A DNA stretch of 13,502 bases from a virus (taxonomy: Duplodnaviria > Heunggongvirae > Uroviricota > Caudoviricetes): IMG/VR virus record IMGVR_UViG_2526164596_000007, positions 1-13,502 of that record; one strand, written 5' to 3'. The notes beneath the pieces are model-generated. The model saw only the letters and a program-made list of their open reading frames with translations, was not told where the DNA came from and did no database searches. A program made the translations under genes and the position numbers. Shown here piece by piece: positions 1 through 13,502 of the stretch. Position 1 is the stretch's first letter, and the number at the start of each line of letters is the position of its first letter.

Positions 1-577
1 AACAAGGGGAAATTTGCGCCTGGATCGCACGAATAAACGGTTCGAAGGAGCGATGCGTGATTTGTTGCTGAATAAAACTTTTATCCAGCATGACGCGGGT
101 GAAAAGACCATCAAAAACCGCTTTCATTGTGCTATTACCTGCTCCCAAATTGCCTAACACAAGGGGATACATTTGCGATAAGGATAAAAGATCGCGATTA
201 TCTTTTCCTTCATTGAGATGCGGGTAATTCTCATTAATCAACAGTTCAATAAACGGATATTTTAATAGTTCGCCTGCGTAATTATCCCTCTCTAATAATA
301 ATGTAGCCACTTGTGGCGTTAAATTAAGCCAGGCAAAGAGTTTATGTTGAATAAAAAAATGTTGGCATGATTTTAGTAATTCCAACTGCTCTGAAAATAA
401 TTGCCAATGTTGCTCCTCGGTAAGTTGCGCTATAACCCGACTCGTCGGGATACGCACCGTGCCATCTTCACTGGAGAAATGGGTAATTAACTCAACGCCG
501 ACAAGGAGTTGCTGGTTATCTCTTATCGGCAGGAAATAGCAATCAGAATGATAAAGATTCTCCAAAAAAATCTTCAT
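1..577 (-). CDS. ydiV: Anti-FlhDC factor YdiV (EAL-like), partial; 3' end lies beyond the window start
   Basis: Reverse-strand translation from the ATG at 577..575 reads MKIFLENLYHSDCYFLPIRDNQQLLVGVELIT..., matching my recollection of E. coli YdiV. The open frame runs to the window edge. Not in the ORF track because no stop codon falls inside the window. Confidence 0.8.
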   Translation of the reverse strand, partial: MKIFLENLYHSDCYFLPIRDNQQLLVGVELITHFSSEDGTVRIPTSRVIAQLTEEQHWQLFSEQLELLKSCQHFFIQHKLFAWLNLTPQVATLLLERDNYAGELLKYPFIELLINENYPHLNEGKDNRDLLSLSQMYPLVLGNLGAGNSTMKAVFDGLFTRVMLDKSFIQQQITHRSFEPFIRAIQAQISPC

Positions 578-783
578 GGTAACCGTCCCTCTCGAAGGAT
601 GTTTTTCAGTATCCGGCTAAAAGGGATGAGGCCATAAGACATAACAATTACAGAAGGAGTAACTTTCATTTGTTCCATGTTAACCACTTTTTCAGGGGTC
701 CTTTTTTTAGATTATCCTGATTATAAACGAATAATCCATTTACGGAATTTTTGTCTGCAAAATACTACTGTATTCAGGAGTAA

Positions 784-816
784 ATGGACGGCGATGTATC
801 ATCGCCGTCCATTTTT
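784..816. terminator. Perfect 13-bp inverted repeat (784-796 / 800-812, 3-nt loop) followed by T5 on the plus strand, just 3' of nlpC
   Basis: Seen in sequence: atggacggcgatg-tat-catcgccgtccat then ttttt. The A-run/T-run arrangement favours plus-strand termination, but it may act bidirectionally at the end of nlpC. Confidence 0.4.
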
Positions 817-823
817 CGACATA

Positions 824-1288
824 CTAGATTCGTCTCGCCTGCCAGAAATTTTTCTGCCAATAGACATTATCAAGTGAGGAACGCATCACTCCCTTGCTGG
901 TAGAGGCGTGGATAAATTGGTTGTTGGTATCGTAAATACCTACATGCAAACCATTTTGTCCGGACCCCGTTTTGAAAAAGACCAGGTCACCAGGCAGCAA
1001 CTCGTCTTTATCAATTTGCGTGCCGATAGAGGCTTGTTCTTTGGTTTCTCGGGGCAGCTGCAAATCGAAACGATCGCGCATCGTTACAACCACAAATCCC
1101 GAACAGTCCACACCGCGCCGCGTCATGCCACCATAACGATACGGCGTGCCATGCCAGCTTTGTAGCTGGTCGTTCAAACCGGCAATAACGGTAATCGAAT
1201 CAGAAAGTCTGGCATTTGGCGGCGGTGCTTTATGGTGGCTACACCCGGCCAGAAACAGTGCTGTGATCAAAATAAGGCAGAAACGCAT
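824..1288 (-). CDS. nlpC: NlpC/P60-family lipoprotein NlpC
   Basis: 154-aa ORF with a lipoprotein signal and lipobox (LFLAGC) and an NlpC/P60-like Cys motif (GVDCSGFV). Its position downstream of btuD matches the E. coli K-12 gene order. Confidence 0.9.
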   Translation of the reverse strand: MRFCLILITALFLAGCSHHKAPPPNARLSDSITVIAGLNDQLQSWHGTPYRYGGMTRRGVDCSGFVVVTMRDRFDLQLPRETKEQASIGTQIDKDELLPGDLVFFKTGSGQNGLHVGIYDTNNQFIHASTSKGVMRSSLDNVYWQKNFWQARRI

Positions 1289-1365
1289 TCCGTACGGTTC
1301 CTCTGTTTTTTATTCTTGCATTAATTTAGCGTCGTAATTACCCGATTTTCAAGATACTAATGAAA

Positions 1366-2115
1366 TCAGATGGTCGAAATCAGCATTCTGTGACCTTCGA
1401 TATCCAGACGGCGAAAATTCATCCCATAGGCCTGCGCCAGATTTGGCGGCGTGAGCACCTCTTCTCTGCGTCCACTGGCCAGCATTTTTCCACCTTTTAG
1501 CAACCACGCCCGATGCGCATGACGCAATGTGTGGTTGAGATCGTGACTGCTCATCACAATCGCCAGTCCTTGCTGACACAGAGCGCTCAGAATTTTGTCT
1601 AACGCACTTTGTTGCGCAACATCAAGACTGTTCATCGGCTCATCAAGAAGCAGCAATTGACCTGCGGGATTGGCTTGTGGTGTGATTTGCAGCACCACCG
1701 CAGCAAGACGTACGCGTTGCCATTCACCGCCGGAAAGTTGATTGGTGCTACGTCCGAGTTTGTCATCAAGAGCCAGCGCCCCTGCGACATCATTCAGTAG
1801 TTCGGTACGCGTTTTATCGTGCTGATGCAGTGTCAGGTAGTGCCAGACCGGCATTGCAAACGGCGGCGTCTGCTGTTGTGAAAGATAGGCGCGATGCAGC
1901 GCGAGTTTTGTTGCGGACCATGCTTCCAGGGGTTGCCCCGCGAACTGAATGCTTCCCTTACCGCTGGTCATTCCGGCCATTCGTGCAAGCAAGGTACTCT
2001 TACCCGCGCCATTCGGCCCCACCAGATGCAGGATCTCCCCAGCCCGAACCTCGCCAGAAAGTGGCCCCAGGCGGGTAGATTCCGCAACATCCTGTAACTG
2101 CATCACAATAGACAT
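1366..2115 (-). CDS. btuD: Vitamin B12 ABC transporter ATP-binding subunit BtuD
   Basis: 249 aa with Walker A (GPNGAGKST), ABC signature (LSGGEWQR) and Walker B (LLLLDEP). Sits in the expected btuCED context. Confidence 0.95.
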
Positions 2116-2666
2116 TATTTTGCCAACGCCAGTTTAATGCTTTCCATCACAATGGGGTCTTCCGGCGTCATATCCGGGGAAAAACGCTGGATGACCAATC
2201 CGTCCCTGCCAACTAAAAATTTCTCAAAATTCCATAAAATATCATCAGGGTACAGCGGTGCACGACCTTTGCTGACCATACGGGCATAGAATCCGCTCTC
2301 TTCCGGCGCGACTGCGGTCGGCGCTGCGGCAATCAATTTTTGATACAGCGGATGGCGTCCTTCGCCATTAACTTCAATCTTACTGAACATCGGGAACGTC
2401 ACCCCCCATGTGGTGGTACAGTAAGTTTTAATCTCTTCATCGCTGCCCGGTTCTTGTTCCAGAAACTGGTTGCACGGGAATCCCAGCACCACAAAACCTC
2501 GATCGGCCCAGGCTTTCTGAATATTCTCCAACTGCTCATATTGCGGCGTTAAGCCACACTTTGAGGCGACATTGACAATCAACAGCACATTACCGGCGTA
2601 CTTCTCCAGCGTGGTCACTTCACCGTCGATATCTTTCACTACGGTCGTCAGAATGGAATCTTGCAT
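2115..2666 (-). CDS. btuE: Glutathione peroxidase-family protein BtuE
   Basis: 183 aa with a GPx-like active-site region ([23 protein letters not shown]). Its stop shares base 2115 with the btuD start. Confidence 0.95.
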
Positions 2667-2728
2667 CGTTTCTCCTGGGTGTGGTCAGTAAAAATCTTAG
2701 CTTTTAATCATAGACCGTCTTTTTGCGG

Positions 2729-3709
2729 CTAACGTCCTGCTTTTAACAATAACCAGATAAACACCGGCGCACCCAACGTTGCGGTGACCACGCCAATAGG
2801 CAGCTCTGCGGCAGCTAATGCCAAGCGCGCTACAACATCGGCCAGCAGCAATGCGCTCGCCCCTGCCAGCGCGCAGCCGGGAAGTAATACGCGATGATCG
2901 GTTAAACCACACAACCGAAGAATATGTGGGATCACCAGACCAATAAAGCCGATAGCACCCGCCAGCGCCACACTGACGCCAACCATCCAGCCGGTCGCTG
3001 CCACCAGCACATTGCGCCAGAACCACAGGGGTAAACCCAGTTGCCGCGCCGAGATCTCGCCAAGTGCTAACATATTCATCGGCCTGGACTGACAACAGAT
3101 CCACAACAACACGGGGATCAATGCCAGCATCAGCCAGCTTTGCCGCCAGTCTACGCCGCCAAAACCGCCCATCATCCAGTACATCAGCTGACGTAAATCA
3201 ACAGAGGTGGAAAAGTAGATAGCCCACGTCATTAGTGCGCTACAGATAATCCCTAATGCAACGCCAGCCAGCAATAACCGACTGGTCGAAAGATGACGAC
3301 GGGCGAAACGTAAGAGTATTAAAGTGATGATAAGCGCGCCAGCAATCGCACACAGCCCTAGTGCCCAGTTTGGGAGTTGCCCTTGCCCAAGCAATACCGC
3401 GGCGATAAGCCCTACGCCTGCGCCGTTAGAGACGCCAAGTAGTCCAGGTTCTGCCAGAGGATTTTCAAACAACGCCTGCATTACTGCGCCGGATATAGCC
3501 AGCGCCGCACCAACCAGCAATACAGCCAGCGTACGTGGCAGGCGAATCTGCCAGACGAACAGTTCGCCACGAGGAGAAAACCAGTCACCTGGCGAGATCC
3601 ATTGTTCACCGGCGCAAAGGCTTAAGAGAAGCGCCAGCAGCATCAAAACTGACAGGCATAATAACCAGCGAATATTTTGTCGCTGTTGTTGGCGGGCAAG
3701 TGTCAGCAT
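2729..3709 (-). CDS. btuC: Vitamin B12 ABC transporter permease BtuC
   Basis: 326-aa, highly hydrophobic polytopic membrane protein of the FecCD/BtuC permease type. First gene of the btuCED cluster. Confidence 0.95.
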
Positions 3710-3766
3710 GGTATCCGTTCTGCTGAAGTGTCATGGCGTTGATTTTACGGTGACTCTTCGACAGTG

Positions 3767-3792
3767 AAAAGAAAAAAGGCCGCAGAGCGGCC
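3767..3792 (-). terminator. Rho-independent terminator for leftward (minus-strand) transcription
   Basis: Seen in sequence: GC stem ggccgc-aga-gcggcc (3778-3792) that on the minus strand is followed by a T-rich run (plus-strand A-run 3767-3777). It lies 69 bp upstream of the btuC start, at the junction with the phage-like DNA. Confidence 0.6.
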
Positions 3793-3807
3793 ATAAACAC
3801 AAACAAA

Positions 3808-3820: not shown

Positions 3821-3881
3821 TATAATTATCAAAGGCTTACAGACACACAAAAACACAGCCAACCACAACAAATAACAGGGA

Positions 3882-3901
3882 TGTGGTCACTTTGTGGATC
3901 A
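3882..3901 (+). repeat. Direct repeats TGTGGTCA / TGTGGATCA spaced 11 bp apart; candidate integrase arm-type binding sites
   Basis: Seen in sequence at 3882-3889 and 3893-3901. They resemble the P2 Int arm-site consensus as I recall it (TGTGGACA direct repeats); that consensus is from memory. Confidence 0.3.
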
Positions 3902-4294
3902 TTCGCTCCCCTCTTTTTCCTTATTTCGTTGAACGCCAATTGCGACACACGTACTAAGCAAATCTTTACATTTCTCTACGTCTTCAGACTTACGCAATTT
4001 GATGCTTTTTACAGACTGCGGGCTACTGTCCGTAGCACGATACATCGTTATTTCAATATCATTTCGGTCTAAGAGTCCCATAATGGCTTTTGCAACCTCC
4101 ACACCCTTCTTCGCGAAATCAAAGAACAGAGCAAGTTTATATGGATTTTCGACGGAAAAAACTTCAATTTTGCTAAAACCAACATCGTGTCGAGAAAAAT
4201 ATTGCTCAACCTCATCTCGAAGTTCTGGATCGCAGACAATGTCTATTCTCCAGTACTGACCTAAATGCAAATCGCTATTAACTGTTTTTTCCAC
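3899..4294 (-). CDS. Hypothetical protein (131 aa from GTG at 4294; 138 aa if the TTG at 4315 is used), translationally coupled downstream of int
   Basis: A strong SD (AAGGAGG, 4306..4300 on the minus strand) overlaps the int stop codon, with an in-frame GTG 5 nt downstream. The ORF is AT-rich relative to the integrase and I recognise no family. Confidence 0.55.
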   Translation of the reverse strand: MEKTVNSDLHLGQYWRIDIVCDPELRDEVEQYFSRHDVGFSKIEVFSVENPYKLALFFDFAKKGVEVAKAIMGLLDRNDIEITMYRATDSSPQSVKSIKLRKSEDVEKCKDLLSTCVAIGVQRNKEKEGSE

Positions 4295-4304
4295 AACATC
4301 CTCC

Positions 4305-5279
4305 TTACCCAGCAATAGGATTAAATCTCACCGCATCCTGCAAGTAATCCGGCGCAAGATGGGCATAAATCATCGTTGTCTGAATCTTTGCGTGCCCCAG
4401 AATTTTCTGGAGCGTCAGAATATTGCCGCCGTTCATCATGAAATGACTGGCGAAGGTGTGGCGCAGCGCATGAACAGCCTGGCCGTCAGGAACATCAGGT
4501 GCGACCGTTTTGATGACATCGCGAACCAATGGATAATCCAGCGTCGGAAACACCAGTTTCCCGCCCCGTTTTTTGATCTTTTCAAACAGGCTTTCAGAAA
4601 TAGGAACGGTACGGTTTTTGCTGTTCTTCGTTTTTGAAAAAGTGATTCGACAATGAAGAACACGGCGCTGCTCCAGTACCGCTACCTCGCCCCATCGCGC
4701 CCCGGTCGACAGAAGGATTTCGACAGCCAGCCGTTCATCGGGATTTTCAGCCAGTGCATCCAGCAACTGAACACATTCAGACTTACTCAGATATCCCATT
4801 TCGCGCTCGTTAACCTTCATTCCTTTAAGGCCTTGAACGGGGTTATCGTTAAGAAAATGGCCGGATGAGATGAGTGCGGTAAACATCGCGCTTAACGCCC
4901 CAATCTCTCGATTTATGGTGCTGGGCTGTATCCCCTGCTCTATCCTGGACACACGTAGCTCGGTGAGCATCGTTGTATTAAGTTTATGCACGCACGGGTC
5001 ATCCATTGCCTCACTCAAGCGCAGCAATTTAAGGCGCGTGTTATGCCCTGACTTCATTAGCTGGCCGTGGTATTTCCACCACAAGTCAATAAGCACTGAC
5101 AGCGGACGGCGATCAATGGAGTTTCCTTTCCACTCATTGTTATGCTGTTGCGCCAGCACCCACCGCTCATATAAAACTGCATCCGATTTCGTTTTAAATT
5201 TTTTACGAATGCGTTTGCCTTTACGCCCCTCCGGGCGCATGTCAAGAAGATACCCTCCCGGAATTGATTTTATGCTCAT
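4305..5279 (-). CDS. int: P2-type tyrosine integrase
   Basis: 324 aa with tyrosine-recombinase box II (HALRHTFASH) and the catalytic Tyr region (TTMIYAHL). Strong end-to-end resemblance to P2 Int (337 aa) as recalled. Confidence 0.9.
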   Translation of the reverse strand: MSIKSIPGGYLLDMRPEGRKGKRIRKKFKTKSDAVLYERWVLAQQHNNEWKGNSIDRRPLSVLIDLWWKYHGQLMKSGHNTRLKLLRLSEAMDDPCVHKLNTTMLTELRVSRIEQGIQPSTINREIGALSAMFTALISSGHFLNDNPVQGLKGMKVNEREMGYLSKSECVQLLDALAENPDERLAVEILLSTGARWGEVAVLEQRRVLHCRITFSKTKNSKNRTVPISESLFEKIKKRGGKLVFPTLDYPLVRDVIKTVAPDVPDGQAVHALRHTFASHFMMNGGNILTLQKILGHAKIQTTMIYAHLAPDYLQDAVRFNPIAG

Positions 5280-5328
5280 TCGTGAAACCCCAGCGTTACA
5301 AGACCACCATGCCCCCAGCGCTCCATGA

Positions 5329-5637
5329 TTAGCCGGGCTGTGTGCCAGTCTTGCGGGGTTTTTGAGAAGGCGATGTGCTTTTTAGCCCATCAGGGGAGAG
5401 AGACGGACTGATCTGCCCAGCAGCCTCATTTGTTTTTCCCGTCATAAGCCAATTCATGTACTTAAAAAAGCGAGGGTGATTAACAATCTTGATAAGCACT
5501 TCGCCACCTATGTTTTCAATCCGCCCCGTTTCATAACGACGCAAAGTGCCGATAGGCACATCAATCAGGCCGCAAAATTCTTCGCGCGTTAAATCCTCTG
5601 ATTCACGAATCACTCTAATTTTTTCACCGATAAGCAT
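5329..5637 (-). CDS. P2 C-like immunity repressor (HTH)
   Basis: 102 aa (P2 C is 99 aa as recalled), with an HTH-like N-terminus (LTREEFCGLIDVPIGTLRRYETG). It sits upstream of int on the same strand and is divergent from the cox-like gene across a palindromic operator region. Confidence 0.7.
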   Translation of the reverse strand: MLIGEKIRVIRESEDLTREEFCGLIDVPIGTLRRYETGRIENIGGEVLIKIVNHPRFFKYMNWLMTGKTNEAAGQISPSLSPDGLKSTSPSQKPRKTGTQPG

Positions 5638-5649
5638 TGACAGTGTTCC

Positions 5650-5695
5650 TATAAGTACACTAAGCTTGCGCGCAAGGTGTACTTATAAGTACACC
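5650..5695. promoter_or_regulatory. Lysis/lysogeny switch operator: three half-sites of tataagtacac (direct, inverted, direct), including a perfect 20-bp palindrome
   Basis: Seen in sequence: tataagtacac at 5650-5660, its reverse complement at 5677-5687, and a third copy at 5685-5695. The stretch 5676-5695 (ggtgtacttataagtacacc) is a perfect palindrome and cttgcgcgcaag (5664-5675) is a second one. A TTGACA -35-like hexamer at 5637-5642 lies just upstream. Confidence 0.6.
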
Positions 5696-5733
5696 AAGTC
5701 ACAAACAACCACAGATAGCGCAGGTTATCACAC

Positions 5734-6012
5734 ATGGCAAAAGTCCTGAACACACACGAACAGGCAGACTTTGAGCGTTTAGCAGCGTTCTATCCCTACC
5801 GCGATGAGCATGGGTTACCAGTACTTGAAGAAAGCCTGAAAGATTACGCAAAGCGTACCAACCAAGCTGTTAACACAGTGAAAAGACAGGCTGACAGAGG
5901 TTCAATTCCCATCAACCAGGATGAAAAGAACTCAAGACGCACAGTAAATCTCTTCGCTCTTTTCCTGAAAACAATCAGGAGCGCAGAAAAATACGTGCAG
6001 ATGACAAAATAA
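5734..6012 (+). CDS. Cox/Apl-like small DNA-binding protein (putative excisionase and switch regulator)
   Basis: 92 aa (P2 Cox is 91 aa as recalled). It is the first gene of the rightward operon, divergent from the repressor, and has an HTH-like segment (YAKRTNQAVNTVKRQADRGSIP). Confidence 0.5.
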   Translation: MAKVLNTHEQADFERLAAFYPYRDEHGLPVLEESLKDYAKRTNQAVNTVKRQADRGSIPINQDEKNSRRTVNLFALFLKTIRSAEKYVQMTK

Positions 6013-6026
6013 CGAGGTGTCATTTT

Positions 6027-6365
6027 ATGCTGAAGCAACGCCGTAATTTTCGTACCGGAACAGAACGCCACGCTAACCGTTTCACTACCAGTGCATCACG
6101 CAGCAACATCCGCTACAGCCTGAGTGATACACACGCAACGCCGGATGGCTACCCAGTAAAACAAATCGGCGAGCACGCCTGGCTGATTGAGAAAGCTGGA
6201 ATCGTGATCCACAAATGCCCACGCAATCCGTTTACCGGAAACCGCATTTTTGCATTGAGCTGTGGCGACAATCAGTTCGGGCAGGATTTCACATTATACG
6301 AAGCACTTCGCACGGTTGATCGTCTGCTTCGCGGACAAAGTTTTATTAAACAGGTTGATTTATAA
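6027..6365 (+). CDS. Hypothetical early-region protein (112 aa)
   Basis: SD GAGGTG precedes the ATG; the ORF is packed tightly behind the cox-like gene in the same orientation. Confidence 0.55.
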   Translation: MLKQRRNFRTGTERHANRFTTSASRSNIRYSLSDTHATPDGYPVKQIGEHAWLIEKAGIVIHKCPRNPFTGNRIFALSCGDNQFGQDFTLYEALRTVDRLLRGQSFIKQVDL

Positions 6366-6375
6366 CAGGTGCTTT

Positions 6376-6663
6376 ATGACCAAAGAGTATGCACAAGGTG
6401 TATTTATCCGTTTTATTGATTTTCGCGGTGAACTGTTATTACGTGCATCCGCTATTGACGGAGTGACTCCGGCGGGTAAAAACGGAGCCGACGAAGCCAC
6501 TTACGTTTATCTGAACGGCACGCGACTACTTGTGGAGCTTCCGTACCAGACCGTTCGCGAAGCCATTAACGAAGCTGAAAAAGCGCGCCAGGCTAATAGC
6601 GATGAACCCTATATCGAAATTATTTGTATGGATTCAGAAGCTGAAATTAAGAAAGCAGATTAA
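6376..6663 (+). CDS. Hypothetical early-region protein (95 aa)
   Basis: SD AGGTG at 6366-6370 sits 5 nt before the ATG at 6376. The longer track ORF starting at 6262 overlaps the previous gene and is less likely. Confidence 0.55.
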   Translation: MTKEYAQGVFIRFIDFRGELLLRASAIDGVTPAGKNGADEATYVYLNGTRLLVELPYQTVREAINEAEKARQANSDEPYIEIICMDSEAEIKKAD

Positions 6664-6674
6664 AGGGCGTTGTG

Positions 6675-6917
6675 ATGGGCAAAGAATATAAAACTCTCAT
6701 TAACAAAGCACTTGAGCGTTTTTATTTTCGCTTAAGCGCATCAGGCGCTCATGCTGAACGTGCAGCCCGTGACTCATTGACCAGGGCAATCCGGAGTTTG
6801 TATGACGTCGCTTTTTACGCTGATGATCTGGATGCACTTAACGAACTTTCCGAGCTGATCTGTGCCGCAGAATGCGGGGAACATATTGAACCGTATAAGC
6901 TGGGGAATATCGCATGA
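6675..6917 (+). CDS. Hypothetical early-region protein (80 aa)
   Basis: SD AAGGG at 6663-6667; start is the ATG at 6675 (a GTG at 6672 is also possible). Confidence 0.5.
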   Translation: MGKEYKTLINKALERFYFRLSASGAHAERAARDSLTRAIRSLYDVAFYADDLDALNELSELICAAECGEHIEPYKLGNIA

Positions 6918-7027
6918 GTATATTTATCTCATGGCTTGTTCTGATTATTTCGGTGGCCTGCGCCATTGGGATTATGCGAATTATTCATTCAGTAAAAAAG
7001 ATTGAACGCTTTTTCACTGACGAATAA
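6914..7027 (+). CDS. Small predicted membrane peptide (37 aa, one hydrophobic helix)
   Basis: Translation MSIFISWLVLIISVACAIGIMRIIHSVKKIERFFTDE. Its ATG overlaps the upstream stop (ATGA). Below the ORF-track size cutoff; AT-rich. Confidence 0.4.
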   Translation: MSIFISWLVLIISVACAIGIMRIIHSVKKIERFFTDE

Positions 7028-7116
7028 CAGCACAAACAAAACACCAGATTAAATAAGAAAACGTGAAAACAATCCGCATTCGCGGAGGCATCCACATATA
7101 TAAACACGAGGTTAGC

Positions 7117-7380
7117 ATGCTCAGGACAAATCAAAAAATACTGAAGGATGCGTATTTTGATAGGGGGCAGGATCTCGCAAAGCTTTGTGCCGCGCTAGAA
7201 GAGATACATCAGTATTTCGCTGATATTGAAGATGATATAGCTAACAAAGGTACCAGTATTTCATCAGCGAACAGAGCACATTTTATGGGCTTTAATATTT
7301 TTACAGCAATAAGAACATTAAAAGAACAAAAAGAAGAAATAGAAAAGCTCAAACACGGACATAAAGCTAAGAGAGTGTAA
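7117..7380 (+). CDS. Hypothetical protein (87 aa), AT-rich
   Basis: SD GAGGT at 7107-7111 sits 5 nt before the ATG at 7117 (the track ORF starts at a GTG at 7063). Visibly AT-rich and lysine/glutamate-rich. Confidence 0.5.
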   Translation: MLRTNQKILKDAYFDRGQDLAKLCAALEEIHQYFADIEDDIANKGTSISSANRAHFMGFNIFTAIRTLKEQKEEIEKLKHGHKAKRV

Positions 7381-7583
7381 TGGCAATTAAGCATTTTCCC
7401 GTCGTTCGTTTCACCTCCAGAGGGCGCGAATACGAGGTCGACGAACGCCTGATTACCACTATCGACAAACATCGTTCGGAAAAGGATGCACACCACATCT
7501 ACCTCACTGACGGCACTTACTTCTGCGCCACTAATGTGGCGCGGGTAAACCTTATCCGACAGGTACAGGAGCCACGCAGATGA
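7380..7583 (+). CDS. Hypothetical protein (67 aa)
   Basis: Start overlaps the upstream stop (TAATG), indicating translational coupling. Confidence 0.5.
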   Translation: MAIKHFPVVRFTSRGREYEVDERLITTIDKHRSEKDAHHIYLTDGTYFCATNVARVNLIRQVQEPRR

Positions 7584-7846
7584 CCATTCTGGACTACATC
7601 GCTACTCATCCGGGGTGTAGCGGCGGAGAGATCGCCGCAGCACTGAATACCCCAACCACAGCCATTAATGCTGAGTTACGCCGACTTTGGCGCGGCGGCT
7701 TAGTCATCAGAACAAACCGCAGCACAGGTGGTCGCGCTCGCAAAACAGGAGGCCAGGCTTCTTACCACGTAAACCCGATGCCGTTCGGGTGTAGCAATCC
7801 ACTTACTCACATGTTTAACCAGCTACTGAAGGAAGCCAGAGCATGA
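7580..7846 (+). CDS. Hypothetical protein (88 aa), possible winged-helix DNA-binding protein
   Basis: ATGA overlap with the upstream gene. The segment ILDYIATHPGCSGGEIAAALNTPTTAINAELRRLWRGGLV resembles a wHTH domain; this is a by-eye judgement. Confidence 0.5.
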   Translation: MTILDYIATHPGCSGGEIAAALNTPTTAINAELRRLWRGGLVIRTNRSTGGRARKTGGQASYHVNPMPFGCSNPLTHMFNQLLKEARA

Positions 7847-8142
7847 GCACCATCAACCACCAGAAGCTACGCGAACTGGCATTTGCCCTGCAACGAATGG
7901 CAACGCCTCAAAAATTACTGGCATTTCGCGCAATGCTCTCGCCGTCTGCTGTGCTGGCACTGCTGGATGAGCTGGAGCACGCCAGAACCACGGCTCCTGC
8001 CATTCGCCTGACGCTCCATCATGAAATCGCTGATTTCTGCGCGACGTTGGAGTCGCCGGGCGAACCGGAAACGCCGGAAGCAATACAGCAAGAGCTGCTG
8101 CAACGCATTGACAAGGTTTTTGATTTTTTTCTGAACCAGTAA
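7843..8142 (+). CDS. Hypothetical protein (99 aa)
   Basis: ATGA overlap with the upstream gene; last gene before the non-coding island. Confidence 0.55.
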   Translation: MSTINHQKLRELAFALQRMATPQKLLAFRAMLSPSAVLALLDELEHARTTAPAIRLTLHHEIADFCATLESPGEPETPEAIQQELLQRIDKVFDFFLNQ

Positions 8143-8464
8143 GAAACCAGAACATGCACACACAAAAAAACCGCTTGCCATGCCGCAATCAGTCAGGTTA
8201 CATTTCCACTGCACCTCATAAAACGGGTGCCGGGTTTCGCAGCCTGCTGACTACACAAGCGCACAACCGCGCCAGCGGTTTTTTTGTGCGTACTGTATTG
8301 CCACGTTTTTTTCGCGTCAGAATTATGGCGGGGCGTACGGGGCCGACTTCGGTCGGGCCGGGTTCTTGTGTAGCCGGTACTGCGAACCTCGTACGTCTCG
8401 CCACCCACAGTTTCGCAGCTCTGGATGGTGAGTTTTCACAACTTACTACACAAGGGGCCACACC
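8143..8464 (+). other. GC-rich, hairpin-rich non-coding island (candidate structured RNA or regulatory element)
   Basis: No plausible ORF. Contains a 15-bp inverted repeat (8161-8175 / 8274-8288) flanking about 100 bp, a C(UUCG)G tetraloop hairpin at 8343-8356, and a short hairpin plus T7 run at 8267-8285. Confidence 0.35.
8267..8285 (+). terminator. Putative weak intrinsic terminator (ccgc-gcca-gcgg followed by T7)
   Basis: Seen in sequence. The stem is short (4-6 bp), so the call is tentative. Confidence 0.35.
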
Positions 8465-8695
8465 ATGGCAAACCGCAAACAGCACCGCGCTATCGCGGAG
8501 CGTCGTCACATCCAGACTGAAATCAACCGCAGACTTTTCCGCGCATCACGCGTCGCGCAAATCATGCACATCAATATGCTGCATGAGCGCAGCCACGCAC
8601 TATCAAACATCTATTCCGCCGCTGTTTTCAGCTATCTGGCGGATGATCTGCACGAGCTTCAACAGCTCATCCAGCAGCAAAACAAACTCCATTAA
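8465..8695 (+). CDS. Hypothetical protein (76 aa)
   Basis: SD AGGGG at 8452-8456 precedes the ATG; charged, helical-looking sequence with no cysteines, so not Ogr-like. Confidence 0.5.
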   Translation: MANRKQHRAIAERRHIQTEINRRLFRASRVAQIMHINMLHERSHALSNIYSAAVFSYLADDLHELQQLIQQQNKLH

Positions 8696-8767
8696 TTCCT
8701 GTTCCGGGCCCTTCCTGCACCTTGCGGCGGGAGGCCTTCGCACATCTGTAACCAGAGGATTGCCGCA

Positions 8768-9133
8768 ATGATTCTCGCCAACGACTTTCTTGAATACCTG
8801 CTCAACACAGAGCGTGATCTTGCCGTTCGCGTGCGTGAACGTTATGACATGTACCTGAAATCCCTGCCTGTACCGCAGCTCGCTGACGGAAAGATTGTTA
8901 TTGATGGTCGCTACATGATTGACAGCCACGAGGGAAATTACAGGCTTTACCGCATTGAAGGTGGCACCCCGTCCGTTATTGGCATTTACCAGCGCCCATC
9001 CTCTGCAATCGTCGATGTGATTGCCGACAGCATCCGCATCACACATCGCCATGCCGACACAGAAGACACCGTGCTGGAAATTCAGCGGCTGGCTACAGTC
9101 TGCCGCGACACCCTGAATGGCATGACGAAGTAA
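8768..9133 (+). CDS. Hypothetical protein (121 aa)
   Basis: SD GAGGA at 8753-8757; ends 7 bp before the replicase start. Confidence 0.55.
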   Translation: MILANDFLEYLLNTERDLAVRVRERYDMYLKSLPVPQLADGKIVIDGRYMIDSHEGNYRLYRIEGGTPSVIGIYQRPSSAIVDVIADSIRITHRHADTEDTVLEIQRLATVCRDTLNGMTK

Positions 9134-9139
9134 ATCACT

Positions 9140-12013
9140 ATGACGGCAGAGTACATCAGGGACTGGCAACAACCGCGCCACGCAGTGGGGCGTGAAGGAA
9201 CGGGGATCCCCGCTCCTGAATCCGCGCTTTCCTCCTGGCTGGATGCCTACCGGGTAGAGAACGAGCGCCGCCAGGAAATGGCTGATGCGGCGTTCTCCGC
9301 AACGCCGCTGGGCAACCTGATTAATAAAAGCCTGGACGCACAGGAAAAACAGGACAAAACCATCACACTGGCAGGAGACGCCAGAAAACAGGCACGCGGC
9401 GCGGTGGATGAAGCCATGGCCTCGCTGCGCCTGCTGCCGTCCTATCTGCGCGATCCGCTTATTCGCCACCTCTCCTTCCTGCGCAAAAAACAGGAAGCCG
9501 ATCGCCGGAAAGGCAAAAAGAGCTGGCAGGCGGAACGCTATGCACGCGGAACCCTGCGCAAAATATTCGAACGTCTGGATCGCACTGACAGACACTGGCT
9601 GACACCGGGTTACCGCTCCCTTGCTGGACGCGAACGCCTGGACGATTTGCTTTACCTGCCGCAGCTCAACAAACACCAGATACAGACGCTGGCCACCATG
9701 ACAGCGGCGATGTTCAGCAGCACCTTCGAAAAACTCTGCGATGGCTTTGGCGCGACCGATGGCGAACTGACCATGGATGTAACGCTGAAGGCGTATCAGA
9801 TGCTGGCCCGCATGGCGTTACACCTGCACATCATGCCTCCACATTATGACGCACTGACAACAGATAAAGACCGGAGGAACGAACCGGACACGGAGCTGCT
9901 GCCGGGCGCAATCCTTCGCCTGACCTGTGCGGAATGGTGGAAACGCAAACTGTGGCTGTTACGTTGCGAGTGGAGAGAAGAACAACTCCGCGCCGCCTGT
10001 CTGGTTTCCAGAAAAACATCACCCTATCTGAGCCAGGACGCGTTAAGCGAGTTTCGCGCACAGCGCGAGAAAACACGCGATTTCCTGAAAAGTTTCATGC
10101 TGGAAAACGAAGACGGGTTCACGATTGATCTCGAGACAGTGTATTACGCGGGAGTAAGTAACCCGGTTCACCGTAAGGCAGAAATGATGGCCACCATGAA
10201 GGGGCTGGAACTTCTGGCCGAAGCCCGTGGCGACAAAGCGGTGTTTCTGACTGTCACCTGCCCGTCAAAATACCACGCCACAACAGAGAACGGTCATCCG
10301 AATCCCAAATGGAACGGGGCCACCATGCGCGACTCCAGCGATTACCTGGTTAACACGTTTTTTGCGGCGGTCCGCAAAAAACTGAACCGCGACGGCCTGC
10401 GCTGGTATGGCATCCGCACGGTGGAGCCTCACCATGACGGCACCGTGCACTGGCACATGATGGTCTTTGCTCATCCGGAAGAAATCGACAGCATCGTGGC
10501 CATCACCCGCGATATTGCCATTCAGGAAGACCGCCACGAGCTGGGCAATGATATTACTCCGCGCTTTAAGGCGGAGTATGTCGACGGCTCAAAAGGCACA
10601 CCAACCAGCTACATCGCCACCTACATCGGAAAGAACCTGGACAGCCGCGCCGTGGATGGCATCGACCCGAAAACGGGCAAGCCACGCGTTGACCACGAAA
10701 CCGGAAAATCAATGGCCGAGAGTGTGGAACGCGCCATCGGCTGGGCGCGCCTTCACCGGGTCCGCCAGTTCCAGTTCTTTGGCATCCCCTCCCGTCAGGT
10801 ATGGCGTGAACTCCGCCGCCTTGCCAGCCAGATGGCACGCAACCCGGAAGGCCCACAACGGCTGAAGGATGATGCAATGGATGCGGTACTCGCTGCCGCT
10901 GATGCCGGGTGTTTTGCCACCTACATTGAGAAACAGGGCGGCGTACTTGTTCCACGCAAAGACTACCTGATTCGCACCGCCTACGACCTCGCAGATGAGC
11001 TGAACGATTACGGCGAACAGAGCGTACAGATTTACGGGATCTGGTCACCACTCATCGGGGAATCCTCCCGTGTGTGCACGCACCCGGATAACTGGAAGCT
11101 GGTAAGACGTAAACCGGAAGCGGAAGACAGCACCCGCGAAAATGGTTTTGACCTTCAGGGCGGCCCTGCCGCCCCTTGGACTCGTGGCAATAACTGTCCC
11201 CGTGTACAGGAAACGGACAACAACGGGACAGAACAGCCGGAAGAACGGCCAGCACCGTGGCCGCAGCTCCCTGACGGCGTTGAAGTGAACGAATGGATGC
11301 GCTCACTGAAACGGCACGAACGCCGGGCGCTGATGCGTTCGCTTCGTGACAAACAGGCAAAAAACAGCAGTGATGAAATGCAGAGCTGGACACAGAGCCG
11401 CAAACAGCAGCGGCCTTTGCCTGATAACCACGAATTACTCGCTAAAGAATGGCGGGAGTCTGCTGAAGCTCTCGGCCTGCATATCGGTGAACAGCAGATG
11501 CAGCACCTGTTACGGGGCGGCAGTCTGTACGTTGACGGCAGCATCATTGCACCGCAGGGATTTGAAATTGTACGCAAACCGGATACCCGACCGGACAGCC
11601 GGATCACGCAGCTCTGGCAGCGCCTGAGCCGTAACCACGGCGTAAGCAGCACGGAGATCCGCCATAACCCGGTCGCCAGCTATCTGGCACAGCTGGGGGC
11701 ATCAGACCACGAAGCCGCCGCACGCCTGGCATCCACACTTCAGCAGGACCAGAACACCATGAAAACACCCGTTACCGTGCTTTCTGACATGCTGCGCGCC
11801 ATCCGCGACGCAGAGCACGCACAGAGAATCAGTGAAACCACTGAACGCGCCCGCCGCAAAGCAGATCTGCTGCGGGGTAGCCTGACCAGTGGAAACAAAA
11901 AACAGACAGAAACGGGATTCACAAATCCCGTAAATGAGCAAAAACGCGCCGCGATATATGAAGCGCGCACAAAACAGGCAAAAACGGGATTTCAGAATCC
12001 CGTAAACGATTAA
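9140..12013 (+). CDS. HUH rolling-circle replication initiator, P2 gpA family, with an extended C-terminus
   Basis: 957 aa. HUH motif HWH at residues 437-439 (VHWHMMVF) and a paired-tyrosine motif YIATYIGK (Y491/Y495) analogous to phiX174 gpA / P2 A. Positioned as the last early gene, as in P2. Confidence 0.85.
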   Translation: MTAEYIRDWQQPRHAVGREGTGIPAPESALSSWLDAYRVENERRQEMADAAFSATPLGNLINKSLDAQEKQDKTITLAGDARKQARGAVDEAMASLRLLPSYLRDPLIRHLSFLRKKQEADRRKGKKSWQAERYARGTLRKIFERLDRTDRHWLTPGYRSLAGRERLDDLLYLPQLNKHQIQTLATMTAAMFSSTFEKLCDGFGATDGELTMDVTLKAYQMLARMALHLHIMPPHYDALTTDKDRRNEPDTELLPGAILRLTCAEWWKRKLWLLRCEWREEQLRAACLVSRKTSPYLSQDALSEFRAQREKTRDFLKSFMLENEDGFTIDLETVYYAGVSNPVHRKAEMMATMKGLELLAEARGDKAVFLTVTCPSKYHATTENGHPNPKWNGATMRDSSDYLVNTFFAAVRKKLNRDGLRWYGIRTVEPHHDGTVHWHMMVFAHPEEIDSIVAITRDIAIQEDRHELGNDITPRFKAEYVDGSKGTPTSYIATYIGKNLDSRAVDGIDPKTGKPRVDHETGKSMAESVERAIGWARLHRVRQFQFFGIPSRQVWRELRRLASQMARNPEGPQRLKDDAMDAVLAAADAGCFATYIEKQGGVLVPRKDYLIRTAYDLADELNDYGEQSVQIYGIWSPLIGESSRVCTHPDNWKLVRRKPEAEDSTRENGFDLQGGPAAPWTRGNNCPRVQETDNNGTEQPEERPAPWPQLPDGVEVNEWMRSLKRHERRALMRSLRDKQAKNSSDEMQSWTQSRKQQRPLPDNHELLAKEWRESAEALGLHIGEQQMQHLLRGGSLYVDGSIIAPQGFEIVRKPDTRPDSRITQLWQRLSRNHGVSSTEIRHNPVASYLAQLGASDHEAAARLASTLQQDQNTMKTPVTVLSDMLRAIRDAEHAQRISETTERARRKADLLRGSLTSGNKKQTETGFTNPVNEQKRAAIYEARTKQAKTGFQNPVND
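11912..12003. repeat. Two copies of the palindrome acgggatt-N4-aatcccgt, 72 bp apart, inside the 3' end of the replicase ORF and just upstream of parM; candidate parC-like centromere and ParR operator
   Basis: Seen in sequence at 11912-11931 and 11984-12003. A possible parM promoter (TTCAGA at 11990-11995, ATTAAT at 12013-12018) overlaps the second copy. Confidence 0.45.
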
Positions 12014-12037
12014 TTAATCAACATAAGGAAAAGCGAC

Positions 12038-12998
12038 ATGAAAATTTGTATCGATGACGGCTCCACCAACATCAAGCTGGCATGGACTGAGAACGGCGAA
12101 CGCCGCAACGCCATCAGCCCGAACAGCTTCAAGTCGGAATGGTCTGCGCCGTTCGGTGACACGCAGCCCGCGAACTACATGCTTGATGGCGTGCGCTATG
12201 GTTTTGATCCGGTCAGCGATCGCTTTGTCCAGACGACCGACACGCAATACCAGTACAGCGATGTGAATGTCATTGCCATTCATCACGCGCTGGTCAAATC
12301 AGGCATCACACCACAGGAAGTGGATGTGGTTGTCACCCTGCCACTGAGCGAATATTTCGACACAAACGCACAGCCGGACATGGCCAACATCAACCGCAAA
12401 AAAGCAAACGTCGTGCGCCCGGTGGCGTACCAGAACGGAAAAAGCATTCACTATCCGTAACGTACGGGTTATGCCTGAATCCATTCCGGCTGGCTTTAAG
12501 GCACTGGCTGACATGAGTCCGTTTGAATCCCTGCTGATTGTGGATTTAGGCGGAACCACGCTGGATGTGGCAAAGGTTCAGGGACAACTGGCAGGTATCA
12601 GCCAGGTGTTTTGCGATCCACACGTAGGCGTTTCCCTGATGGCCGATGCCGTACTGTCGGTGATGGCCACTAACGGTATGCGTACCAGTCACCACATCGC
12701 CAATACCATTATCGAACATCGCCATGATGAAGCCTGGCTGCGCCAGCACATCCACAATGACGCGCATTACGCCAGCCTGATGGCGGTTATTCGTGAAAAG
12801 GAAGAAACACTGAAACAACGCGTGATCCGCGCGCTGGCGGGTTTTTCGGGTTACGGGCGGGTGATGGTTGTCGGTGGCGGGGCGGAGATTGTGGCACCCG
12901 CTATCCGCGAAGCCTGCGGAGTTAATGCGACTTTCATCGCGGACGGGGTGCCACAGTTTGCTCTGGTTAATGGGCTGTACGCAATGGACAAGGAGTAA
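12038..12998 (+). pseudogene. parM: ParM/StbA-type actin-like segregation ATPase, interrupted by a +1 frameshift in an A5 run
   Basis: N-terminus MKICIDDGSTNIKLAW matches R1 ParM (MLVFIDDGSTNIKLQW) as recalled. Phosphate-2 (LLIVDLGGTTLD) and adenosine (VMVVGGGAEI) motifs are present. The frame shifts from the 12038 frame to the 12471 frame at aaaaa (12439-12443); removing one A restores a continuous ORF of about 319 aa. Confidence 0.8.
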
Positions 12999-13002
12999 AC
13001 CA

Positions 13003-13314
13003 ATGACGACACCAACCAGACGGATAAGTTTCTATCTGAAGCCCGCCGCCGTCAAGAACGAAGGCGAAGCATGCGCCTGGCTGGACAGCCTTACACCAGA
13101 AGCCCGCAAAAGTGGTCAACGTGTGGCTTTTCTGGCCGGGCTGGCACTACTGAAAATGAATCCGGCAGAGGCTTACCGACTGGCTGCATGGGCTGATTAT
13201 GAGGCGTTATCAGTGACACAAACCAGGACAGAACGCCCCGCGTCACAGCCAGTATCAGCCGCACAGATAACCAGTCAGATGGCCGGAAATATCCGGGCGT
13301 TATTTCCCGAATAA
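13003..13314 (+). CDS. parR: ParR-like centromere-binding protein (103 aa)
   Basis: SD AGGAG at 12991-12995 sits 7 nt before the ATG. The N-terminal segment (RRISFYLKP...LDSL...AFLAGLAL) and C-terminal IRALFPE resemble R1 ParR as recalled. Lies immediately downstream of parM, as in parMRC loci. Confidence 0.65.
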   Translation: MTTPTRRISFYLKPAAVKNEGEACAWLDSLTPEARKSGQRVAFLAGLALLKMNPAEAYRLAAWADYEALSVTQTRTERPASQPVSAAQITSQMAGNIRALFPE

Positions 13315-13377
13315 CACAACATCAGGGCGCATCCGCCCGGATGACTTTAACCCGGGAGCATAAACAAGGGGGACACA

Positions 13378-13502
13378 ATGCAACACATTGACAGAGAAAA
13401 AGCGCAGCGACTGATTGAGCGGATGGAAGCGCTGGCGAAAGAAGAAAATGTCAACATCCAAAAAATAGCTGAATGTGGCCAGATAGTTCTTCGTCGTGAA
13501 AA
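13378..13502 (+). CDS. Hypothetical protein, 5' portion only (runs off the window end)
   Basis: SD-like aaggggga upstream of the ATG at 13378; the frame stays open to the window end (MQHIDREKAQRLIERMEALAKEENVNIQKIAECGQIVLRRE...). Confidence 0.4.
   Translation, partial: MQHIDREKAQRLIERMEALAKEENVNIQKIAECGQIVLRRE

Follow-up and report, generated by a model that had tools for sequence, protein, structure and literature searches.

Introduction

In the deposited sequence of a prophage of Escherichia coli DEC15B, the gene for the segregation protein ParM is divided into two open reading frames (ORFs) by one additional A in a short homopolymer. The question raised by this locus is whether the additional base belongs to the strain, as an inactivating mutation or as a regulated switch, or to the deposited sequence alone. 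An earlier note on this DNA had set sequencing error, recent inactivating mutation, and phase variation side by side and had chosen none of them; as argued below, error is favored, recent inactivation is tentatively retained, and phase variation finds no support.

A P88-Like Prophage With a Partition Cassette

The window (the whole stretch of DNA that was analyzed, 13,502 nt) is the entire contig AIHP01000014.1 of assembly GCA_000250515.2 (E. coli DEC15B). Positions 1 to approximately 3800 are E. coli chromosome and comprise ydiV, nlpC, btuD, btuE, and btuC (the btuCED flank), and the sequence beyond approximately 3800 is the left arm of a P88-like (P2-type) prophage, which comprises an integrase, repressor-like genes, gpA, parM, a parR-type gene, and the start of a ClpX-zinc-finger gene. 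The parMR block of 1.3 kb is present in 1307 of 5426 complete E. coli genomes, in which it is annotated as “plasmid segregation protein ParM” and “plasmid partitioning/stability family protein.” It is further known from 14 phage records, among them that of Escherichia phage P88 (Peduoviridae, Xuanwuvirus), and from 7 plasmid records; hence, both the cassette and the phage family are known. In the annotated relatives, parM is an uninterrupted coding sequence of 960 nt and gpA encodes 940 aa. The parM of the window is part of an R1-type parMR partition cassette, whose place in P88-like (Xuanwuvirus, P2-type) prophages is between gpA and the ClpX-zinc-finger gene. The two genes that flank parM are as follows.

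Positions 9140 to 12013, plus strand: gpA replication endonuclease of a P2/P88-type prophage, with an aberrant C-terminal extension (Pfam Phage_GPA, E 9.5e-132)
Positions 13003 to 13314, plus strand: parR-type adaptor gene, 103 aa, intact (Pfam Plasmid_stab_B, E 9.4e-24)

The ORF at 13003-13314 adjoins parM as a cognate adaptor gene of the ParR/StbB type does, and its exact 103-aa product is found on 29 contigs. The contig stops within the ClpX-zinc-finger gene (window 13378-13502), and just 3′ of the contig end the P88-like phages diverge, with the ClpX zinc finger in some and Ead/Ea22-like genes in relatives. The break at 13502 fits a boundary between repeated or variant sequences, possibly owing to a second related prophage in the strain.

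Two Pieces of One ParM

The window reads GGAAAAAGC, in which positions 12437-12445 are ggaaaaagc and the five A residues (A5) occupy 12439-12443. The split gene comprises the following features.

Positions 12038 to 12460, plus strand: N-terminal ORF of parM, 140 aa, consisting of 135 native residues and an out-of-frame tail, SIHYP, followed by TAA (Pfam StbA_N, E 7e-70)
Positions 12439 to 12443, plus strand: A5 homopolymer with one extra A, the +1 frameshift site; relatives have A4 or CGAA
Positions 12444 to 12998, plus strand: rest of parM in the +1 frame (Pfam ParM C-terminal domain, E 2.8e-69)

The first ORF covers positions 1-137 of the 158 positions of the StbA_N profile, ends with ...AYQNGKSIHYP* (that is, ...VAYQNGKSIHYP*), and has the database entry EHY06356.1, “stbA family protein [E. 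coli DEC15B].” The +1 frame is already open upstream of 12360, reads ...KAFTIRNVRVMPESIPAG..., and ends at the stop codon at 12996-12998; gene callers begin this downstream part at ATG 12471, which results in a 175-aa ORF identical to the corresponding part of intact ParM in other genomes. The E-values of the two pieces place the match with ParM far beyond chance.

The earlier note had located a single-base frameshift in A5 at 12439-12443, had traced ParM homology across the junction in both frames, and had expected an intact protein of about 319 aa from four A residues. Alignment indeed puts the extra base inside the A run at these coordinates, and removal of one A fuses the ORFs 12038-12460 and 12444-12998 into a ParM of 319 aa that aligns with R1 ParM straight through the junction. 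The repaired protein exceeds the gathering scores of both Pfam ParM domains (StbA_N, 273 bits, residues 1-157; ParM C-terminal domain, 230.5 bits, residues 159-316). It is identical to WP_000686508.1 at 317 of 319 positions, with 100% identity after the shift, and differs from the intact relatives only by D41, common to the nearest haplotype, and V126. Against the NCBIfam equivalog model NF010498, “plasmid segregation protein ParM,” it scores 19.3 bits, below the cut-off of 417; this model covers a different ParM subfamily, and RefSeq still calls the orthologs ParM. A single uninterrupted frame is present in the relatives, whereas the deposited sequence is split at A5.

Distribution of the A5 Allele and the Question of a Regulated Switch

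At the frameshift site, the closest relatives align as GG-AAAAGC and phage P88 as GG-CGAAGC. With a parMR query of 1321 nt, the full-length matches in E. coli genomes, phage, and plasmid records span 1320 nt. With an 81-nt query centered on A5, 640 complete E. coli genomes were matched, none of them identically, and all matches listed span 80 nt. For a 30-mer containing A5, searches of IMG/VR, GTDB representative genomes, and JGI/ENA metagenomes yielded no exact match, whereas the A4 version of this 30-mer has 14 and 4 matches. Approximately 40 loci were fetched, and all those that cover the site have A4 or CGAA. Among approximately 15 billion proteins, the 140-aa fragment is found on one contig only, namely the contig analyzed here. 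The exact repaired protein of 319 aa is also absent from the protein collection; therefore, no re-sequenced copy of DEC15B is available there. The earlier note had proposed that orthologs consistently having A4 would indicate a sequencing error and an intact gene; since every ortholog examined has A4 or CGAA, the comparison favors error by that measure.

The same comparisons bear on whether the A run could be a regulated switch, either through phase variation by tract length or through programmed +1 ribosomal frameshifting or transcriptional slippage on GGA-AAA-AGC, which would yield a fixed proportion of full-length ParM (...NGK-AFT...). If tRNA-Lys slipped by +1 from AAA (12440-12442) to AAA (12441-12443), the exact wild-type sequence would be restored, and A runs with lysine codons are well known to be slippery. 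However, conservation of the frameshift is lacking: all homologs examined are in frame, and the potential A-AAA-A slip site is present only in this sequence. Some relatives have A4 at the tract, and others, P88 among them, have CGAA and hence no homopolymer; known contingency tracts, and the runs at which transcriptional slippage occurs, are far longer than A5; and the next codon in the 0 frame, AGC, is neither a stop nor a rare codon. A long tract varying among close relatives, as expected of a phase-variable contingency locus, was not found in the 640 complete genomes and three other collections, and no second length variant occurs among these 640 genomes. The phase variation raised in the earlier note is thus contradicted by a tract of only 4-5 nt that is CGAA-interrupted in many relatives and by the lack of a second A5 allele in the collections searched. 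A regulated switch at this site is regarded as extremely improbable, and nothing suggests that spontaneous +1 slipping on A-AAA-A would exceed background.

Clustering of Private Differences in the Contig Tail

A near-identical prophage for comparison was found by exact look-up of the integrase of the window. This assembly (L047; GCA_052484015.1) has the same prophage at the same btuC site, with identical gene order, in a different host background: its chromosomal flank differs from that of the window by 64 substitutions and 2 single-base indels. By contrast, window 3823-13502 differs from L047 at seven sites in total, which are listed below together with the cluster that six of them form.

Position 10572: substitution
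Position 11879: substitution, gpA G914S
Positions 11940 to 11944, plus strand: second private homopolymer discrepancy, A5 in the window and A6 in L047 and other relatives, which shifts the last gpA codons
Position 12413: substitution, ParM M126V
Positions 12439 to 12443: A run of parM, A5 in the window and A4 in L047
Position 13122: substitution, synonymous, in parR
Position 13339: substitution, intergenic
Positions 11879 to 13339, no strand assigned: cluster of six differences, i.e., the substitutions at 11879, 12413, 13122, and 13339 and the two homopolymer indels

One difference lies in 3823-11878 (8.06 kb) and six in 11879-13502 (the last 1.62 kb); this tail makes up 16.8% of the prophage sequence, and the binomial probability of its receiving 6 or more of the 7 differences is 1.3e-4. 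The same six differences set the window apart from ten more relatives (L022 and L034-L042), which are near-invariant among themselves over this segment. An earlier pile-up on a small panel, in which private substitutions appeared scattered along the prophage, is superseded by the comparison with L047. Outside the tail, the contig is in excellent agreement with other assemblies: window 1-3800 is 100% identical to several finished genomes, all seven 7-nt homopolymers and the other 6-nt runs agree with relatives, and the 11.9 kb that precede the tail match almost perfectly, so that the unusual features are all packed in the 3′ tail. The per-site divergence of approximately 1e-4 elsewhere in the prophage predicts approximately 0.2 substitutions in the tail, whereas 4 substitutions and 2 indels are seen; therefore, a uniform accumulation of real mutations does not fit. 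With regard to the alleles, 11879 A and 13122 T are found in other P88-like lineages, whereas the other two, 12413 G (found in none of the 640 genomes) and 13339 G, are private, as are both indels. The haplotype nearest to the window is that of L022 (OHOZ01007353.1, a metagenome contig aligned to window 11464-13502), in whose record 7 bp of parM (window 12898-12904) and approximately 30 nt near window 11691-11719 are missing.

The second homopolymer change lies approximately 500 nt upstream of the A5 of parM. Through the change from A6 to A5, the end of gpA, ...NEQKTRRDI*, becomes ...NEQKRAAIYEARTKQAKTGFQNPVND*, and the protein comprises 957 aa instead of 940 aa; the altered C-terminus is also given as ...EQKTRRDI* changed to ...EQKRAAIYEARTKQAKTGFQNPVND*. 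Only the last five residues of the normal protein are touched. In the protein collection, the 957-aa gpA is found on this contig only. Against 1250 complete genomes, the best matches of the 81-nt query at the gpA run have a span of 82 nt and 98.8% identity, which corresponds to A6, and one record in the band of at least 99% must be a partial match, as judged from its ranking. A5 at the gpA run is absent from all fetched relatives that cover the site, with the exception of the error-ridden draft contig APWZ01000690.1 (L008/L027; GCA_000358755.2, also in IMG/VR). This contig was considered as a recurrent miscall of the same run and rejected, since its 91 single-base gaps in 3.5 kb are scattered and not tied to homopolymers, and its A5 is uninformative for the same reason. 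Relative to a finished genome, these gaps chop its gpA into at least four ORFs, and its parM is split at a site other than that of the window.

Error in the Draft or Mutation in the Strain

Taken together, the comparisons suggest that the extra A is probably a consensus error in the deposited draft contig AIHP01000014.1, introduced at a low-quality contig end, and not a property of the strain. The true gene would then be an ordinary intact parM of 319 aa. The reads behind the tail may have been few or of poor quality, or may have been mixed up between similar prophage copies, such that homopolymer lengths and a few bases were miscalled. Error is favored because the differences cluster in the tail only and because neither half of ParM has decayed. 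The extra A occurs in a single assembly, independent assemblies of this prophage lack it, and it is co-located with other private discrepancies at a contig end.

The presumed sequencing history is compatible with this explanation. It is well established that 454 chemistry miscounts homopolymers. The submitting centre of the DEC15B assembly was, we take it, the University of Maryland Institute for Genome Sciences, and the accession series of AIHP01000014.1 presumably dates from approximately 2012. One study of 2012 by that institute used 454 Titanium and the Celera assembler (PMC3491183). The argument from the platform is circumstantial.

Several observations count against an artefact. The long runs agree with relatives, and the contig therefore has no general homopolymer problem. 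Four of the six clustered differences are substitutions, which are rarely 454 consensus errors, and the alleles 11879 A and 13122 T look more like real variation or mixing across copies than like random error. A consensus collapsed from two P88-like copies in DEC15B was considered for these two substitutions, which match other lineages, and was set aside, since a second copy would be expected to flip more than two sites. Furthermore, homopolymers are natural hotspots for real slippage too, and parM is dispensable for an integrated prophage, with real null alleles in circulation.

The rival explanation is that the extra A is a genuine, very recent, strain-private +1 slippage insertion in an A4 run, which inactivated parM in a resident prophage not needing partition, with the A6-to-A5 change in gpA as a second neutral slip. 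Homopolymer changes of ±1 are the commonest real indels, and the gpA change could be neutral with only the last five residues altered. The substitutions in the same segment, two nonsynonymous (gpA G914S and ParM M126V), one synonymous, and one intergenic, fit relaxed selection, and the high accuracy of the rest of the contig speaks against a generally sloppy assembly. Real disruptions of parM are also known from other genomes, i.e., a Q189* allele, a deletion allele (L024), and another split gene (L025). The Q189* null allele of P88-like parM (CAG to TAG; L043-L046, e.g., L043:1501-2460) occurs in independent samples, on 23 or more contigs; the gene keeps its length, is called as two ORFs, and has several amino-acid changes downstream of the stop. 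It shows that parM can be lost in P88-like prophages. In L024 (FZJE01000008.1), which is a prophage remnant, the whole early region and gpA have been deleted, so that the C-terminal half of parM follows the integrase region at a distance of approximately 750 nt.

Because genuine null alleles of parM exist elsewhere, a recent inactivating mutation retains a real, if lesser, claim. However, six private changes in 1.6 kb beside 8 kb with one change are unlike uniform mutation accumulation, and recombination would bring in alleles already present in other lineages, which the two frameshifts and two of the substitutions, being private, are not. Neither homopolymer allele was found in the other genomes or metagenomes searched, the sequence downstream of the shift is without decay, and the cluster adjoins the contig end. 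Hence, we consider a genuine mutation a tentative alternative, somewhat unlikely as the evidence stands. A further variant, in which all six clustered differences are real, would involve a local mutation burst or an unusual recombination patch in the gpA-3′/parC/parMR segment and a recent knock-out of parM, with low +1 slippage that might still provide some wild-type ParM; this is judged improbable.

Consequences for the Reading of the Locus

If, as preferred here, the extra A is an error in the draft, DEC15B carries the standard intact parMR cassette of P88-like prophages, and EHY06356.1, EHY06357.1, and the 957-aa gpA (EHY06355.1/WP_000123473.1) are database noise, neither pseudogenes nor novel variants. 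If the extra A is real, the strand AFTIRNVRV between the two fragments would be lost, the shift being at position 137 of the 158 positions of the StbA_N profile. The N-terminal fragment would keep the first phosphate loop (DDGSTNIK), and the C-terminal fragment from ATG 12471 would keep DLGGTTLD and GGGAE. The nucleotide cleft formed between the two halves would be split, such that no functional filament-forming ATPase would be expected, and the allele would represent one more private loss of function in a gene that integrated prophages can lose, as with Q189*. The finding is ordinary, with nothing novel and little biological weight. Its lesson is methodological: comparison of a draft contig with a near-identical independent assembly exposes error clusters restricted to the contig tail without recourse to reads.

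Comparison With Known Systems

The allele of the window has been compared with two kinds of broken sequence. Miscalls in early next-generation drafts resemble it in that two ±1 changes in A runs are private, lie at most 1.6 kb from the contig end, and are accompanied by other private differences; they differ in that the longer runs of this contig are correct and substitutions are present in the cluster. The Q189* allele affects the same gene in the same prophage family but is a nonsense substitution, present on at least 23 contigs and followed by further amino-acid changes, whereas the allele of the window is private and without decay.

The closest characterized partition protein is R1 ParM (1mwk), with which residues 2-316 of the repaired protein align over residues 2-318 (E 3.5e-93; 148 of 317 positions identical, 47%). 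The nucleotide-binding motifs DDGSTNIK, DLGGTTLD, and GGGAE of the repaired protein all align with R1 residues. The gene order of the type II (actin-like) ParM/ParR/parC system of R1 is likewise found here, with parM followed by a small Plasmid_stab_B (StbB/ParR-type) gene and repeats upstream of parM, as listed below.

Positions 11896 to 12009, no strand assigned: two 42-nt direct repeats, each with the 20-bp palindrome ACGGGATTnnnnAATCCCGT (11912-11931 and 11984-12003; two matches, whereas 0 of 200 shuffles reach two)

These repeats, of which only two copies are present, lie directly upstream of parM and extend over the 3′ end of gpA. They are a candidate for the parC centromere or the ParR operator in the P88-type parMR, a putative function suggested by their position. 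In R1, parC consists of ten 11-bp iterons. The window differs from R1 in these upstream repeats, which are two 20-bp palindromes 72 nt apart, in its parM ORF, which is broken as deposited, and in its carrier, since R1 is a plasmid and the cassette described here is on an integrating P2-type prophage. Phage P88 (YP_009113060.1 and YP_009113061.1) and the E. coli prophages carry parM and parR at the same position, between gpA and the ClpX-zinc-finger gene, with 97.9-99.3% DNA identity over 1.3 kb. At the frameshift site, P88 reads GGCGAAGC, whereas the window has one extra A, by which the gene is split, and the substitution M126V.
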